Sequence record: NC_079184.1
Origin: Escherichia phage vB_EcoM_DE15
Reading direction: 5' to 3' (one strand)
Length of the DNA stretch: 53,998 nucleotides
Positions 4,637 through 18,319 of this stretch are shown one piece after another. Within the stretch, counting starts at the first letter, position 1; each line of letters starts with the position of its first letter. The translations under genes and the position numbers were made by a program. The notes beneath the pieces were generated by a model that did not search any database, was not told the origin of the DNA, and saw only the letters and a program-made list of their open reading frames with translations.

Positions 4637-4824
4637 AGAGCAAGATTCTTAAGTCAGCAATGTATAATCTGCATTTCGGACTCAGCTACCCTACAGTAAA
4701 GCGTCAAGAGAAACGATTTTCACGACTACCTGCACGGACTGTTGCCAAAGAGGTTAAGAAGGCGAGCGAGATTCTAAAGTTCGTTATGTGGAAACGTGTT
4801 GTATTAACTCCGGAGACCAAATGA
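4633..4824 (+). CDS. Hypothetical early protein (63 aa, GTG start)
   Basis: ORF in track; start uncertain. Confidence 0.35.
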   Translation: MKSKILKSAMYNLHFGLSYPTVKRQEKRFSRLPARTVAKEVKKASEILKFVMWKRVVLTPETK

Positions 4825-5087
4825 GCCAGTTTAAGTTAAAAGCAGATTTAATCGAGTTGGCCTCTTATGAAGAGAAAATCGAATTCATCCAAGAACGTTT
4901 GGTTGTCAACTACGGTGGTTGGATTGATGTTTCTACAAATGAGTTGGTGGTTCGTATCAAGGAAGAGTTTGGTATTGAAATCACTAACAAACAGTTTTAT
5001 GAAGATGTTCTCACAGATAAAGTTATTCGAGGCATCACAAACAATTTCATGTCCAGCTTTATGGAAGGTGGGCCACGTTTAAAATGA
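4821..5087 (+). CDS. Hypothetical early protein (88 aa; ORF track gives 4788 start)
   Basis: ATG 4821 in frame of ORF 4788..5087. Confidence 0.4.
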   Translation: MSQFKLKADLIELASYEEKIEFIQERLVVNYGGWIDVSTNELVVRIKEEFGIEITNKQFYEDVLTDKVIRGITNNFMSSFMEGGPRLK

Positions 5088-12042: not shown

Positions 12043-12274
12043 TTTAAATATTGCTGAACTTGAGGCTGGATTGATTGTTCACCACCAGCCTCGAAACACT
12101 TTCTATCGTATTCTTGGGCCTACAAAGATTAAAACTCACTGCGGAAGTTGGGTGGATGGGTTTGCTTACCAAGAAGTGAAGAAGTACGGGGACCATACTT
12201 TCTTAAGTATTGATTCCTCTACTATCTACACACGACCGAAAGAGCTATTTGACTCAGACTGGAAAACACTATAG
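12035..12274 (+). CDS. Hypothetical protein (79 aa)
   Basis: ORF. Confidence 0.4.
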   Translation: MRDLNIAELEAGLIVHHQPRNTFYRILGPTKIKTHCGSWVDGFAYQEVKKYGDHTFLSIDSSTIYTRPKELFDSDWKTL

Positions 12275-12343
12275 TTCCAGGCGGGTTTCTTCGAAGTGCC
12301 AAGCGGGTTTTGTACTCGCATTGGCCTTCGGCTTTAGTCTGAA

Positions 12344-12364
12344 ACATTAGTGGGATTTGATTCT
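12344..12364 (+). promoter_or_regulatory. Phage promoter-like motif (first of three in tandem)
   Basis: ACATTAGTGGGATTTGATTC. Confidence 0.4.
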
Positions 12365-12494
12365 GACCACTTAGGGAAGAAAGGCATTATACACTTATCG
12401 CCAAATGGGTGTCAAGCACTTTCTTCATTTATTTTAATTTATTCTTATTATTCTTTTTGTTTGGAATATTGGAATAATTCTGAAACATTAATTG

Positions 12495-12516
12495 GAATTG
12501 AATTAGTGTAATTCTG
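12495..12516 (+). promoter_or_regulatory. Phage promoter-like motif (second of three)
   Basis: ACATTAATTGGAATTGAATTAG, preceded by a 70-nt AT-rich tract. Confidence 0.4.
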
Positions 12517-12621
12517 TCTGTACTCTTTTCCACTAGCAATTGTAGAGGAAGTCCACTGCAATAAGCGCAGCCTCAAACAACCAAGTCTGGACAACTTGGG
12601 AAGAGAGTACAGCACAAAATC

Positions 12622-12642
12622 ACATTAGTTTGAATTGAAACA
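12622..12642 (+). promoter_or_regulatory. Phage promoter-like motif (third of three)
   Basis: ACATTAGTTTGAATTGAAAC. Confidence 0.4.
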
Positions 12643-12651
12643 ACATCAGAT

Positions 12652-12724
12652 AAGAGCTTTGTAACTAGGTAGTCCGTCTGGTACCAAGACGTGTGAGAAC
12701 GTTCGATTCGTTCTACAAAGCTCT
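12652..12724 (+). other. Structured element: perfect 12-bp stem (AAGAGCTTTGTA / TACAAAGCTCTT) closing two internal hairpins, one T-arm-like (GAACG-TTCGATT-CGTTC)
   Basis: Inverted repeats read directly; located just downstream of third tandem promoter. Confidence 0.35.
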
Positions 12725-13273
12725 TTTCGATGGAATGTTTCCATCATATACATTTATCTTTTAACATAGGCCAAAGGGCCGGAATACTTATCCACAGAAA
12801 GCTATTCACTTGTTATAGGCGATGTATTGGGATGAATTGGAACTAAATAAGCAAGCTGTTAGGGCTGAATAATTAGAGGGTAATGCCTCATGCTTATGTT
12901 AGTCATTCGAAAATAGGTTTGTGCCACAAGCTGCTGGTGCTCCGAGGAAGTCGGACAAACAGGGCTTAGAGTGGCATAATCCGCACAAAACCGCGCCACC
13001 AGCTATGCCAAAGCGGGTGGTTTGGGTGAATGTATTGGGAAGGGTTGCAAAGCCTCTGTGACACGCCTGAGCCGCAAGGCGACGACACTCATGTGATTAG
13101 CGTATCGCACCCTAACGGGAGTAACCCTTCGCCAATGCAGTTATCCAGAATTGACACAAACGGTAGGCAGTGGCCCGATTTTCGGCCTTCCTGCGCTACT
13201 CTGTGGCCTGTTTCCTGGGCCAAAAGATGAGAAGAGAAGTCACAAACACTGAATCGAAAATTGGAGAGTTCCT

Positions 13274-13588
13274 ATGATTCGCAAGCATTCTGCTAAAGTT
13301 TTGACGTTAAGAAGGGTAAGGGTCGGTCTTACAGGTAATGAAGAGGAAACAATACACTTCGTCCTGGTTGGAGGTCTTTGGTACTACAATGGTACTAATG
13401 CCTTTTCCGTGAGAATCTCAGAAAAAGATGGGTTCTGGAAGCACACTTTCGAAGAGATACTAGGCACCAGTGCCAAATACACCCTTGCAGAAATTAAGAA
13501 ATATTTCTATATAGGCCCAAACAAGTCCATGCAAATAGCAATCCGCAAATGGACAACAAACCAACCGATTTACGGAGTTCCATTTTGA
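13274..13588 (+). CDS. Hypothetical protein (104 aa)
   Basis: GGAGAG RBS, ATG start. Confidence 0.45.
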   Translation: MIRKHSAKVLTLRRVRVGLTGNEEETIHFVLVGGLWYYNGTNAFSVRISEKDGFWKHTFEEILGTSAKYTLAEIKKYFYIGPNKSMQIAIRKWTTNQPIYGVPF

Positions 13589-14551: not shown

Positions 14552-14580
14552 GTCGTTTGTCGAATCAGAGCAGTTCTGAA

Positions 14581-14675: not shown

Positions 14676-15014
14676 ATGGCTAAGATTGTAACCGTAACTC
14701 AGTACGAAGCTAACGATGGTTCCCTGTTCCTGACCGAAGCAGAGTGTAATGCACATGACTTCAAACTGGAAAACGGTGCTAAAATTGAGAAAGCTGCCGA
14801 AGCGTACCTGAACACCGTTGGCGCTATCGACCGTTCTCGCTCCATGCAGAAGAACACCATCGAGCAGTTCCTGGCATTCTACCTGCCGTGGGTTGAAGCT
14901 GGTGAGCCGGAAGTTGAGCGTACTAAGTTCGATACTCCGAAAGAAGCTAAAGTTGCTGACGCAAGTGTTGCCGAAGCTGCCGAAGCTGCTGTTGAAGAAG
15001 CTCCGGTATTCTAA
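14676..15014 (+). CDS. Acidic protein (112 aa) with host-like high-expression codon usage
   Basis: CTG/CCG/CGT-rich codons unlike neighbours; Ala/Glu-rich C-terminus. Confidence 0.5.
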   Translation: MAKIVTVTQYEANDGSLFLTEAECNAHDFKLENGAKIEKAAEAYLNTVGAIDRSRSMQKNTIEQFLAFYLPWVEAGEPEVERTKFDTPKEAKVADASVAEAAEAAVEEAPVF

Positions 15015-16104
15015 GTTGCCGATGGCAAACTTGAGAGACTAAGCTAAATCGATCTGGCATGCACTGGAAGATTTCCGGTGCTGCCTTGAACCCATTCTGA
15101 AAGGAAGAGTGGGCTTCAATGAGCATTCTTGTGATTAGAGTTGGGAGGTAGGCCGATGCCCAAGCTCATGGCCCAGACAAGAGTGTTCATTGAAGTTACT
15201 TCAATATGGATTGTCGCCAAGTTGTGGAAGGACGTGCACACAGATTTAACGAAGAAAAGTAACAGCCTGAGAACTGTGAAAATTTCCCGTTATGTCGTGG
15301 GGAAGTGCACCATAGCTTGGGTTCTTCACGTAGATATTACTCAGATATTTGCGGCTCGCTGAATGTGAGCATCCATATTGAAGTAGTTTTCTGAGTCTTA
15401 CGACGGGCCTAAACTGCCTGAAGTTATTGCGACTGTTTTATTCATTTAAAATAAATGCAAATGATTCTGAAATGCGAGTTGCGGCTTAATTAAATTTAAG
15501 TCCTCTCCGTGGTCTTCCAATCCCACGTAACCAAATTTGGCGCATTGTGGCTTCGAGATGTGATTAATAAATCGGAGCAATAATTAATTTGTATTCTGCG
15601 ATGCAATGCAGGCTTAAGTCCCTCAGTGCGCGTGGGGATGTGACAGAGTACAAACTTAATTATGCAGTTGGATATTTCTAGAGGACGGACGAGCACACTG
15701 GAATGTCTTCAATTGGTTTAGTGTGAGAAGCTATGCCAATATGAAACGTAACTCCTTGGGGAAGTGCTCCTCTGGATTTCCCTCCACACAGGAATCTCAA
15801 GCCTGTGGCAGCGACTTCGAAGCTGCACTGCGTAACCTAAATTCACCCTAAAGTGAGTTGCCCTGAGTATGGAAATAAACTGCTCATAACCGATGGTATC
15901 TACAAAGGTAGATTAAATCAGGTTGCCTGTTGGTACTTGGGTTCAACACCTGCTTGCACTCGCAAAGTAGTGCCTCGTACCTGAGATGAAGTGAGTCGGG
16001 ACCATCAATCCCACGTTATGTCAAAACACAGTAGGCGGCTCACGGATTCTACAAGCCTCGCAGTTCGGGAAAACCTGCGTTATCAAAACCCCCCTCTTTT
16101 ATTT

Positions 16105-16196
16105 GGACGAGTAGCTCAGAAGGTTTGCATTGTGCTCAGTCAGGTAGAGCAATCTGTTCGACAGATGTGTCGTTGGTTCGAATCCAACCTCGTCCA
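16105..16196 (+). tRNA. tRNA-like gene (anticodon loop GUUCGAC, anticodon UCG, Arg) carrying a 20-nt insertion in the D-loop; possibly pseudo-tRNA
   Basis: Acceptor GGACGAG/CTCGTCC, TA at 8-9, D-stem GCTC/GAGC, T-arm GTTGG-TTCGAAT-CCAAC, discriminator A; D-loop 29 nt with duplicated GCTCAG. Confidence 0.4.
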
Positions 16197-16228
16197 CCCA
16201 CTTTAATAATAGCAATACTGGAGTCCTT

Positions 16229-16369
16229 ATGGATTTTGATGCACTTGATAATTTAGACTTCGGTGCTGCCGAAGAAGCAATTGAAGAACTTAAGAAGAAA
16301 CAGGACGAAGAAGCAATCGTTCCTGGTGAGGGCGATAACGACTGCTCAAGTGGTGCGTGCGCCATCTAA
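16229..16369 (+). CDS. Small acidic peptide (46 aa) ending CSSGACAI
   Basis: GGAG RBS; MDFDALDNLDFGAAEEAIEELKKKQDEEAIVPGEGDNDCSSGACAI. Confidence 0.3.
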   Translation: MDFDALDNLDFGAAEEAIEELKKKQDEEAIVPGEGDNDCSSGACAI

Positions 16370-16377
16370 GGTGATTC

Positions 16378-16614
16378 ATGCAACAGCTTAAGTCAATCTT
16401 TCTTGGCGTCTTGACTGCATTGGGTATTCTCCTTGCAGTGTTCCTCAAAGGCAAAAGCTCAGGCAAAGCCGAGGAGCGCCAGGAAGCCAAAGAGAAGCAA
16501 TTCGATTCCATTAAAGAATCTATCGAGATTAAAACGCATGTTCAGAAAGAAGTGTCTAGCAGTTCTGATAGCAATGTCGATAGTGAGTTGCTCTCAAAGT
16601 GGGTTCGTAAGTGA
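16378..16614 (+). CDS. Small membrane protein, i-spanin-like (N-terminal TM helix plus charged coiled-coil)
   Basis: AAGGTGA RBS; MQQLKSIFLGVLTALGILLAVFLKG then K/E-rich region. Confidence 0.35.
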   Translation: MQQLKSIFLGVLTALGILLAVFLKGKSSGKAEERQEAKEKQFDSIKESIEIKTHVQKEVSSSSDSNVDSELLSKWVRK

Positions 16615-16738
16615 TTACTGCATGATTGCACAACCAATCTATTTGGATGTTGCAGAAGTGAAAGTTTTATCACGCGAAACCAAAACACAGATTTTAGTCC
16701 ACAATGAAACGTGGGCACAAAAGTGTTCGAAACGATGA
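16538..16738 (+). CDS. Lipoprotein in alternate frame overlapping the previous gene, o-spanin-like
   Basis: MFRKKCLAVLIAMSIVSC: signal peptide with lipobox-like IVSC. Confidence 0.3.
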   Translation: MFRKKCLAVLIAMSIVSCSQSGFVSDYCMIAQPIYLDVAEVKVLSRETKTQILVHNETWAQKCSKR

Positions 16739-17181
16739 AATTATCAAAGCAGTATATTTACGACAGAGTTTCTAAGCGTCAGGAACCTACTTGGCAAGTA
16801 GACACAGATGGGTATTTATCTGCTTCGATTACTTTGCCAGAAGGCACTTTCAACGTAAGAAAACACATCTTGGTGTTCTACAAAACAAACGGATACATTC
16901 CAGATTTTGTGGACCATAAAGACAACAACAAATTAAACAATGCTCCAGACAACTTGCGAGAAGCAAGCAAGTGCCAGAATCAACAGAACTCCAAACGACC
17001 AAAGAATAACTCTTCTGGCGTTAAGGGTGTGTCACTAACCAAACACGGTAAATGGCAAGTTCGTATTATGGCAAATGGTGTGAAGCATTACGGTGGATTG
17101 TTTGACTCTCTCGAAGATGCCAAACAACACATAGAATCATTACGATTGAAATTACATAGTGATTTTGCTCGTAGTGTGTAG
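16735..17181 (+). CDS. HNH homing endonuclease with AP2-like DNA-binding domain
   Basis: DHKDNNKLNNAPDNLREASKCQNQQN (HNH) and GVKGVSLTKHGKWQVRIMANGVKHYGGLF (AP2-like). Confidence 0.65.
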   Translation: MKLSKQYIYDRVSKRQEPTWQVDTDGYLSASITLPEGTFNVRKHILVFYKTNGYIPDFVDHKDNNKLNNAPDNLREASKCQNQQNSKRPKNNSSGVKGVSLTKHGKWQVRIMANGVKHYGGLFDSLEDAKQHIESLRLKLHSDFARSV

Positions 17182-18097
17182 AGTTAGCTTACCCGACAGT
17201 GAGTGAACAAGACGGACGTCTATAACTTCCCACATGGCCTAGCTAGTTGGTGGTGTAAAAGACTGACCAAGGTGACGACAGCCAAAGTCGAGGGAGTGCG
17301 CGACTTTAAATAACGAGACTCTAGCAACTTGTTGCGATGATGGTGTAAGCCCATGCGTTTGGAAGCAGGACTCCAACTCAAACAAACCTGCAAGTTGCTC
17401 TGGGCATAACAATTGAAATTGCTGCCTCGCATTGAACGCGAGAAAGTTCAGGTAGTCACTTCCTAGAACAGTGTCCGAGAACACCCTCGCCAAAGTGCTT
17501 GAGAACGTTAGCTCTGTCTTGCCAGCATTAATGGCACGTTGGCCGCGTAAAGGCCACAGCGTCTGACCAACGTATCGGTCACCAAATTCAATGGATTCGT
17601 AGAGTTAATTAAACCTGCACGATGGGATAGGGATGAAGCATCCGAGGCCGACTGTGTAATTGTGAACTTATCGTTCGCCGAATCCGCCAATTTACCTCCA
17701 ACAGTTATGCCTCTGTTCAAAAGGCTCAAGAGAGCGTCTGGCATACCGTAGCGATACGGCTTAGTTGCGCTGATTGTGTTGTGCAGAAAGAAAGTTCAGG
17801 CTTTCGTTTGGGTTACTCCTCATCCCGAAGTTAGCTGGATTCAAAATCCAGACTATGTTCCTATACACATGAAATATGCAAGTCGAGGGTTCTTAATGTT
17901 CAAACATGATGCGAGCATTAAGCGGGTTTATACTTTTCCCCGATGGTCCCCATAAACAAGGCTGATTCACTTGGGCGGTTCGAATCAAATTTAATAAGTG
18001 TCTTGGCCGCAGTGGAAACATCATTTAAGCCAATGTTTTGTAATGTTCGTAATAGTCCACGTCAGGACACTTAATTAAATTTTAACTGGAGAGAGAC

Positions 18098-18319
18098 ATG
18101 AAAACTGCTGAAATTGCCGAAGAGATTTATAAGGCCGTAATAGCCAGCCAAATCACAAGTGAAGTCCTGCACATGGATATTGAAGAAGTTCGCAATGCCT
18201 TTGGTGGTTTTGCAATCTTGTCAATAGAAGCTGCGGAAGCACTGACAAACACGTACAATCAACGCGAATATGAAAAGCGTTCTGTACTAAATGCGTCATT
18301 ACAGGCGTCATTAAAATAA
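18098..18319 (+). CDS. Hypothetical protein (73 aa)
   Basis: GGAGAG RBS. Confidence 0.45.
   Translation: MKTAEIAEEIYKAVIASQITSEVLHMDIEEVRNAFGGFAILSIEAAEALTNTYNQREYEKRSVLNASLQASLK

Follow-up and report, generated by a model that had tools for sequence, protein, structure and literature searches.

A phage-encoded RNA resembling the messenger half of tmRNA in a conserved, gene-poor island of Chaseviridae genomes

Layout and conservation of the island

The DNA analysed here, a window of 53,998 bp (Escherichia phage vB_EcoM_DE15, NC_079184.1), is essentially the complete genome of a phiEcoM-GJ1-like phage (Chaseviridae, Carltongylesvirus), with all of its long open reading frames (ORFs) on the + strand. 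The subject of this report is an island of about 3 kb at 15015-18097 and, in its left flank, an RNA of ~195 nt that resembles the messenger half of transfer-messenger RNA (tmRNA, SsrA) and has no tRNA-like domain (TLD). The island is bordered on the left by a homologue of gp29 (14676-15014; phrog_17419) and on the right by a homologue of gp32 (18098-18319; phrog_32967), which is followed by thyX and a primase/helicase gene. An initial annotation of the locus had described a low-coding stretch of higher GC and many hairpins that contains a tRNA-like gene, a small acidic Cys-peptide, a spanin-like gene pair and an HNH-AP2 endonuclease, and had interpreted it as a mobile or hypervariable insertion whose flanks may hold structured RNAs or decayed genes.

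The low coding density is borne out, as ORFs of at least 90 amino acids (aa) are absent from 15015-16432 and from 17182-18097, and a PHROGs search of 10 flank ORFs gave 0 matches. The compositional and structural parts of the description did not hold. The GC content of the island is 0.442 vs 0.441 for the genome (0.449 and 0.460 in the flanks), and 200-nt windows of the flanks have a mean minimum free energy (MFE) z-score of -1.31 vs -1.0 for coding controls (p = 0.26), which indicates no enrichment of structure. The sole exception in folding energy is 15015-15214, directly after gp29, with a z-score of -5.5.

Piecewise, the island DNA matches ~50 phiEcoM-GJ1-like phages at 92-98% identity. 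A common order was seen in four genera, Carltongylesvirus, Faunusvirus, Sabourvirus and Loessnervirus: the gp29 homologue is followed by ~1 kb in which annotated genes are few or absent, by small genes that include the spanins, by a further ~0.9-1.2 kb without an annotated gene, and by the gp32 homologue, thyX and primase/helicase. Its carriers include Erwinia phages Faunus and Fifi44, Escherichia phage 4HA13 and the Carltongylesvirus phages. The layout is syntenic in every Chaseviridae genome examined, so that the presence/absence comparison proposed in the initial annotation found it kept throughout. The genome recorded as Staphylococcus phage Pel53 (PP952070.1) is also a member of the Chaseviridae and is 85-95% identical to the E. 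coli phages across the island; it is labelled with Staphylococcus hyicus as host, a label that looks doubtful.

These comparisons bear directly on the proposal that the island or its flanks are a mobile or hypervariable insertion of foreign DNA. Mobility is indeed seen at the level of smaller cassettes: segments 15121-15373 and 15664-15850 and several smaller right-flank indels vary between close relatives, the island carries an HNH homing endonuclease in a 454-bp cassette, and additional HNH genes occupy other sites of the region in relatives. Since the layout is common to four genera, the insertion reading does not hold for the island as a whole. Its GC content equals the genome average, and its core blocks are 82-97% identical in distant genera vs ~70-80% for the flanking protein genes. 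Neither presence or absence as a unit nor atypical composition was found, and a foreign origin is thus highly improbable.

A tmRNA-like messenger RNA in the left flank

A sensitive BLAST search of the left flank located ~140-200 nt around 15430-15580 that are conserved in all Chaseviridae and that recur in the unrelated Ackermannviridae (YX22, Madison), Schitoviridae (PGN829.1, TR2), Klebsiella siphovirus VLCpiS13b and Ounavirinae (phiEa104). Covariance model R1 matches 15443-15581 at 113 bits, as a single copy in the window. The model and the covariation described below support a predicted tmRNA-like messenger RNA at 15385-15578 (~195 nt, + strand), in which a 5' AGUUUUC motif is followed by an A-rich leader, a resume codon, a 10-codon frame, a stop hairpin and two pseudoknots. 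Judged from sequence and covariation, this anatomy is that of the messenger half of tmRNA. The expectation of structured RNAs in the flanks is thereby supported for the left side, which also contains a frameshifted ORF.

The predicted tag frame (15457-15489, + strand) reads GCA AAT GAT TCT GAA ATG CGA GTT GCG GCT followed by TAA, and would encode ANDSEMRVAA*. It has neither a start codon nor a Shine-Dalgarno sequence, opens with alanine, and is preceded by AAAAUAAAU directly 5' of GCA; the peptide would close, like SsrA proteolysis tags, with a hydrophobic residue and then Ala-Ala or a similar pair. Tags in homologues include ANDDVVLMAA, ANEEMYLAVA, ANDEQFLAVA and similar peptides, to be compared with ANDENYALAA of E. 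coli SsrA. In 75/75 distinct copies the frame runs for 10 sense codons, neither more nor fewer, before a TAA or TAG stop, and the remaining two frames give scattered lengths. Among these copies codon 10 is GCG, GCT or GCC and always specifies Ala, codon 9 specifies Ala or Val, and codon 7 mostly Leu; synonymous variation occurs at codons 1, 2 and 10. Most loci were gathered with the pattern ATAAATGCAAAYGA-N(80-105)-TGTGATTAATAA, by which codons 1-3 and the loop UGUGAUUAAUAA are fixed; frame length, stop position, C-terminus and helices were not imposed by it. Loci derived from BLAST (YX22 with GCT AAT GAT, P1-like, Chaseviridae) open the frame in the same way.

Structure was assessed with RNAalifold and pair counts, first on 33 representatives and then on the 75 distinct sequences. 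The stop codon is enclosed by a covariation-supported hairpin similar to helix 5 of tmRNA, and two pseudoknots, likewise supported, lie 3' of the frame. In pseudoknot A (15508-15540, + strand) the stem 15508-15512/15523-15527 (5 bp, 10-nt loop) is 99.5% paired with 3 covarying pairs, and loop nucleotides 15517-15520 pair with 15537-15540, a second stem that is 100% paired, also with 3 covarying pairs, and occurs in the versions CCAA:UUGG, CCGA:UCGG, UCGA:UCGA and CCAG:CUGG. In pseudoknot B (15541-15578, + strand) the stem 15541-15546/15557-15562 has the form CGCAnU/GnUGUG with a central pair that is C-G in 48 copies, U-A in 14 and G-C in 13, and loop nucleotides 15550-15555 pair with 15573-15578 across a conserved AUUAAUAA linker in at least 9 different complementary sequence versions. 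For all helices together, 98.3% of cells are paired vs 87.5% in shuffles and 21-45% with slid partners, and 12 pairs are changed on both sides. The motifs AGUUUUCG and UGUGAUUAAUAA are invariant and single-stranded. On the 5' side of the resume codon, where tmRNA has its pseudoknot PK1, a putative stem that closes ~7-11 nt ahead of that codon can be drawn for every subgroup (UUUUA/UAAAA here, CUUUG/CAAAG in most others). All-against-all column covariation was discarded, relatedness being too confounding, and a closing helix CCATATTGAAG/CTTCAATTGG around the element was rejected since relatives do not conserve it. A protein gene begins directly after the second pseudoknot in several Chaseviridae.

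The relationship to tmRNA is visible in database models, albeit below their thresholds. The Rfam scan suggested in the initial annotation was run at gathering thresholds on the window and by E-value on the island and 7 homologous loci; tRNA alone was found above threshold. Sub-threshold matches to tmRNA_permuted, alpha, beta and standard tmRNA families were obtained with the window and with homologues from several phage families, the best scores being 20.8-30.7 bits vs gathering thresholds of 47-84. Conversely, R1 applied to E. coli K-12 ssrA aligned with its tag region in register from the resume codon to the stop hairpin (21.5 bits, E 2e-4 in a 901-nt search). Shared with tmRNA (RF00023 and the permuted, alpha and beta families) are the start-less frame, opened by an Ala resume codon (GCA) that lies 3' of an A-rich stretch, a 10-residue tag AN[DE]xxxxx[AV]A close to ANDENYALAA, and the helix 5-like stop hairpin followed by H-type pseudoknots. 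In contrast to tmRNA, the element lacks acceptor stem, T arm, G3:U70 pair and CCA end, measures ~195 nt vs ~360 nt, and has two downstream pseudoknots rather than three. It is also phage-encoded, leads a tRNA cluster or lies within one, and is undetected by ARAGORN and below every Rfam threshold.

A scan of IMG/VR with the pattern yielded at least 120 matching contigs (>120), and R1 found exactly one copy per locus in 97 loci. In phages the DNA that holds the element is always unannotated, and a tRNA gene cluster adjoins or surrounds it in most cases. What the sequences show is the fold, the likeness to the tag region of tmRNA, selection on the frame, and the spread of the element over unrelated phage families, in which it stands next to tRNA genes. 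Among complete E. coli genomes, 690/5426 (~13%) carry it, most copies being on ~90-100-kb P1-like plasmids between dmt and tRNA-Asn/Thr, and others in lambdoid prophages between the Q antiterminator and holin genes; the NCBI prokaryotic annotation pipeline (PGAP) has no annotation under the element itself in E. coli genomes. With one genome for each of 185,579 species there were just 6 matches, so the matches are not host ssrA genes. In 18/86 distinct upstream contexts TTGACA-17-TAGATT ends 12 nt before the invariant GUUUUC, a position that puts the probable RNA start just upstream of GUUUUC. The lambdoid copy is exemplified by the Q-holin gap of an E. coli E2865 prophage (L142, 2142-3215). 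In a similar prophage-type contig (L024, 3950-4140) a late promoter and its terminator, as read from sequence, lie just upstream of the element, which would then be transcribed only once Q antiterminates and would form the leader of the late RNA.

Lambdoid, P1-like and siphovirus loci show further structured modules before or after the tmRNA-like RNA (L018 2075-2315; L027 4300-4680; L141 1975-3160; downstream of the element in L086, L090 and L105). They are closed by a long helix, CACAAC-AGGUAAGrGCAUUG ... CAGUGCUCUUUCC-GUUGUG, with compensatory changes between loci. Some have a perfect T arm, and others are full tRNA-like cloverleaves with D and T arms and a 60-80-nt insert that replaces the anticodon arm; ARAGORN made no calls on these neighbouring modules. 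Reading a CUGAUGA motif in one of them as a hammerhead ribozyme was rejected, as the motif is not conserved.

The same distribution weighs on the idea that the flanks are functionless relics, namely a decayed tRNA cluster together with a captured fragment of host ssrA. An aberrant and inconsistently called tRNA-like gene, T-loop-like remnants such as GGTTCGAATC at 17977 and the frameshifted gp30 homologue are what such decay would leave. A relic would not have retained, in several phage families, helices that covary and an unbroken frame, nor sigma-70 promoters of its own, nor exactly one copy per genome, and the 6 matches in 185,579 species do not represent host ssrA genes. This explanation is very unlikely.

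Neighbouring genes and structured elements

The remainder of the left flank (15015-15385 and 15664-15984) contains short features, which apart from the unstranded cassette 15121-15373 are on the + strand. Just 3' of the gp29 homologue, a 9-bp hairpin read from sequence (15061-15081) is a possible terminator or processing site; its homologue in phage SA91KD carries a terminator annotation. The variable cassette 15121-15373, which is missing from phiEcoM-GJ1, contains a 68-aa ORF (15156-15362) with a GGAGG Shine-Dalgarno sequence, annotated in the relatives SA91KD and Mangalitsa and without a PHROG match. This ORF may be a real gene, which qualifies the earlier view that the outer ~1 kb on each side has no convincing ORF; otherwise the outer stretches contain no ORF that is maintained. 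The homologue of the phiEcoM-GJ1 gp30 ORF (15741-15984) is frameshifted, by different 1-nt indels in the window and in four relatives (L002, L003, L005, L010) despite 94-99% nucleotide identity, and is not a maintained gene. A perfect 15-bp inverted repeat (15197-15211/15371-15385; pair I5, 100% complementary) has a 3' arm that ends exactly at the 5' motif of the tmRNA-like RNA. Closed stems likewise adjoin the GUUUUCG motif at lambdoid-type loci, and the repeat is probably a processing stem.

In the center of the island a hairpin, CGCAG-loop-CUGCG followed by UUAUCAAAACC (16059-16095, + strand), is conserved throughout the family, including phages of Erwinia, Pantoea and Aeromonas, with variation in its loop, and lies just upstream of tRNA-like gene 1 (16104-16200, + strand). 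The latter, which had been recognized in the initial annotation, is called by ARAGORN and by the Rfam tRNA model (45.2 bits vs a threshold of 29). Its acceptor stem and T arm have the canonical form. Close relatives differ in a ~23-nt insert within the D region, and the loop on the anticodon stem has just 5 nt, so that a 7-nt anticodon loop and a normal D arm with a single anticodon are lacking; ARAGORN assigns Leu, Ser or nothing to this gene in near-identical relatives. The "anticodon" stem (16150-16165) contains AUCUGUU, which we take to be the class II pause/termination signal of T7 RNA polymerase; the phage family uses a T7-like polymerase. Part of the D-region insert (GUUUGCAUU, 16123-16131) is a 9-bp complement to the resume-codon region of the tmRNA-like RNA (AAUGCAAAU, 15454-15462); this pairing is unproven, is absent in relatives with another insert variant, and may be due to chance. 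At the position of tRNA-like gene 1, phage Fifi44 (L015, ~4815-4870) has a candidate mini tRNA-like element of ~50 nt, identified by eye, with GGUGGCA, a hairpin, GGGUUCGAUUCCC, UGCCGCC-CCC and a U3:G70 pair, and without an ARAGORN call.

The protein-coding genes that follow are all on the + strand and largely as predicted. The acidic, Cys-containing peptide corresponds to a 46-aa ORF (16229-16369) that is annotated in relatives and has no Pfam or PHROG match. The spanin pair consists of an Rz-like i-spanin (16378-16614; phrog_1026, E 8e-19) and an overlapping Rz1-like o-spanin in another frame (16538-16738; phrog_1275 matches residues 34-100 of the long ORF), the product of which begins MFRKKCLAVLIAMSIVSC, with a lipobox readable in the sequence. 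The endonuclease gene (ATG at 16735, stop at 17181) lies within a mobile cassette of 454 bp (16734-17187). Its HNH part is supported (Pfam HNH_3, E 3e-13; phrog_99, E 9e-46), while the AP2 domain previously assigned to it gave no hit at E<=0.01. In relatives 16733 is contiguous with 17188, indicating a precise 454-bp insertion, and the gene is present at the same site in one other phage record only, that of Shigella phage 2KOFFS. The gene thus has the domain and the sporadic, precise insertion site of a free-standing HNH homing endonuclease. The insertion replaced the last Rz1 codons, giving ...KSVRND* here vs ...KSVTRQ* in insertion-free relatives (16733-16738, 17188-17210).

The right flank (17182-18097) contains conserved non-coding blocks on the + strand at 17283-17321, 17391-17428 and 17447-17496 (within 17283-17590), separated by indel cassettes and carrying local hairpins. 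Erwinia and Sabourvirus phages share the blocks at 90-97% identity, the indels have lengths that are not multiples of three, and the hairpins show compensatory changes. A second tRNA-like element (17593-17689, + strand) is predicted by MFE folding, with a 7-bp acceptor GGAUUCG/CGAAUCC, a stacked 6-bp arm and a 3' G-CCA end. It has no anticodon loop and is called by neither ARAGORN nor Rfam. Phage Faunus keeps both ends of the element with a different central arm, and in phage flopper the position is occupied by another element, one with a canonical T arm. Matches to acceptor plus CCA alone are expected by chance about once per 2-3 kb, and we assign the tRNA-like character of 17593-17689 with moderate confidence. 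The next block (17700-18097, + strand), upstream of the gp32 homologue, is non-coding, with ORFs that lack a PHROG match, and contains hairpins as well as the T-loop-like remnant at 17977. It is 74-79% identical in Aeromonas phage phiA050, in phage 4HA13 and in phage Faunus, with 8 pairs changed on both sides. The right flank thus also fits the expectation of structured RNAs, through the tRNA-like element and the conserved hairpins.

Its position directly upstream of the gp32-thyX-primase/helicase-polymerase module, and its conservation although relatives maintain no ORF there, could instead reflect an element acting at the DNA level, such as the origin of replication or a sequence that regulates the downstream replication genes. 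The flank yielded neither iterons nor tandem repeats, its GC content of 0.46 is not AT-rich, and the cumulative GC skew has no turn there; several hairpins with compensatory changes and a tRNA-like element ending in CCA also speak against it. A DNA-level role is therefore unlikely.

Outside the island, a second stretch without an ORF of at least 90 aa lies at 12043-13273, with a GC content of up to 0.50 around 12800-13400 and two matches to the phage promoter consensus at 12342 and 12483. The whole-window Rfam and R1 scans found nothing in it, and no search was aimed at RNA elements there.

Proposed function and significance

Taken together, these observations are best explained, with a probability of about one half, if the island is a conserved stable-RNA region of the Chaseviridae with small accessory genes and one inserted homing endonuclease, not foreign DNA, and if its key product is the ~195-nt RNA, descended from the messenger half of an enterobacterial tmRNA. 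Apart from its RNA content the island is an ordinary conserved feature of the family. The RNA would be cut from a read-through transcript that starts at the phage-type promoter nearest to the island, at 14579. In the infected cell, ribosomes would read its frame as the tag template in trans-translation, with the participation of host SmpB and with an acceptor provided in trans, either host tmRNA or tRNA or the anticodon-less tRNA-like RNAs of the phage. No SmpB gene is encoded in the window. Phage-induced mRNA decay should create many stalled ribosomes. That selection has kept the frame open, constant in length and SsrA-like at its C-terminus argues that ribosomes read it, and a tag template for trans-translation is the most likely function suggested by the sequence, a decoy being the alternative.

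Several points weigh against this interpretation. The missing tRNA-like domain is the weak point of a tag template: ARAGORN reports no tmRNA in the window or in ~130 homologous regions, there is no T loop within 15385-15578, and nothing consistent that is complementary to the 5' end of the RNA was found within 1.5 kb, which leaves unexplained how the RNA would reach a stalled ribosome. The G3:U70 pair needed by alanyl-tRNA synthetase (AlaRS) for charging with alanine occurs in neither of the two tRNA-like elements, a conserved pairing between them and the tmRNA-like RNA was not found, and there is no match to the phage-promoter consensus or to a sigma-70 promoter inside the island. The invariance of codons 1-3 and of the loop UGUGAUUAAUAA arises in part by construction, and codons 7-10 overlap a helix, so that their conservation may be partly structural.

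The absence of a tRNA-like domain would be readily accommodated by an RNA that is never translated and that mimics the tag-coding and pseudoknot part of tmRNA, binding the SmpB tail, ribosomal protein S1, RNase R or a nuclease that targets this part, and thereby damping or protecting host trans-translation during infection. The invariant single-stranded motifs AGUUUUCG and UGUGAUUAAUAA resemble binding sites, and the converse case is provided by mycobacteriophage DS6A, which encodes little more than a tRNA-like domain; such a TLD-only molecule inhibits tmRNA, perhaps by titration of SmpB (PMC4131195). However, a decoy need not keep a 10-codon frame, synonymous third positions, a fixed stop and an Ala/Val-Ala end in 75/75 copies. 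Such a role is possible and rather doubtful. The tag-template function takes its widest form in the tentative proposal, somewhat doubtful in its turn, that at least six lineages (Chaseviridae, Ackermannviridae, Schitoviridae, Ounavirinae, P1-like and lambdoid) carry a "bring-your-own-tag" messenger RNA that would be loaded on stalled ribosomes with host SmpB and an acceptor in trans, a split and modular trans-translation. If so, phages would raise or re-programme ribosome rescue while destroying host mRNA.

Partial precedents exist for such a division. In the two-piece (permuted) tmRNA of alpha-proteobacteria, cyanobacteria and others, the coding chain is separate from the part that carries the amino acid, as it would be here, and the best Rfam matches of the element are to tmRNA_permuted, the family of two-piece tmRNA. 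The coding piece of two-piece tmRNA starts with the 5' acceptor strand and pairs with an acceptor piece encoded just upstream, whereas around the phage element neither an acceptor piece nor anything complementary to its 5' end was found. Structured RNAs that are apparently co-transcribed with phage tRNA genes, like the element, include the T4 species 1 and 2 RNAs and GOLLD and ROOL; to our knowledge none of them has a tag-like reading frame, and no relationship of the element to them was found by sequence or in Rfam. Phage-borne derivatives of ssrA are also represented by the tmRNAs of the mycobacteriophage Bxz1 group and of Bacillus phage G and by the DS6A RNA. An exhaustive survey recorded phage ssrA solely in mycobacteriophages and Bacillus phage G and scored enterobacterial phages as lacking it (PMC4131195). 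DS6A carries just one half of tmRNA (PMC4131195), and the element is the complementary, messenger-only half; known phage tmRNAs are complete or TLD-only, unlike this RNA of enterobacterial phages. Rfam 15, ARAGORN and PGAP do not recognize the element, and the full-text literature, searched also with sequence strings, gave no description of it, within a coverage that is incomplete and leaves an earlier description possible. We rate it as a tmRNA-derived RNA without the tRNA half that has apparently not been described before.

tmRNA is defined by the joining of a tRNA-like and an mRNA-like part, and an mRNA-only RNA asks whether the two functions are separable. If the tag frame is read, phages would act directly on ribosome rescue and proteolytic tagging, a new layer of host takeover; if it is unread, the RNA would act as a natural decoy or inhibitor of a quality-control pathway that is essential in bacteria and is itself a target of antibiotics. 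In both cases, P1-like plasmids, lambdoid prophages and ~13% of complete E. coli genomes contain a ~195-nt element that present annotation misses, and its role is directly testable in model systems. For the Chaseviridae, the large "empty" gaps of their genomes would be RNA-gene regions, neither junk nor foreign DNA.

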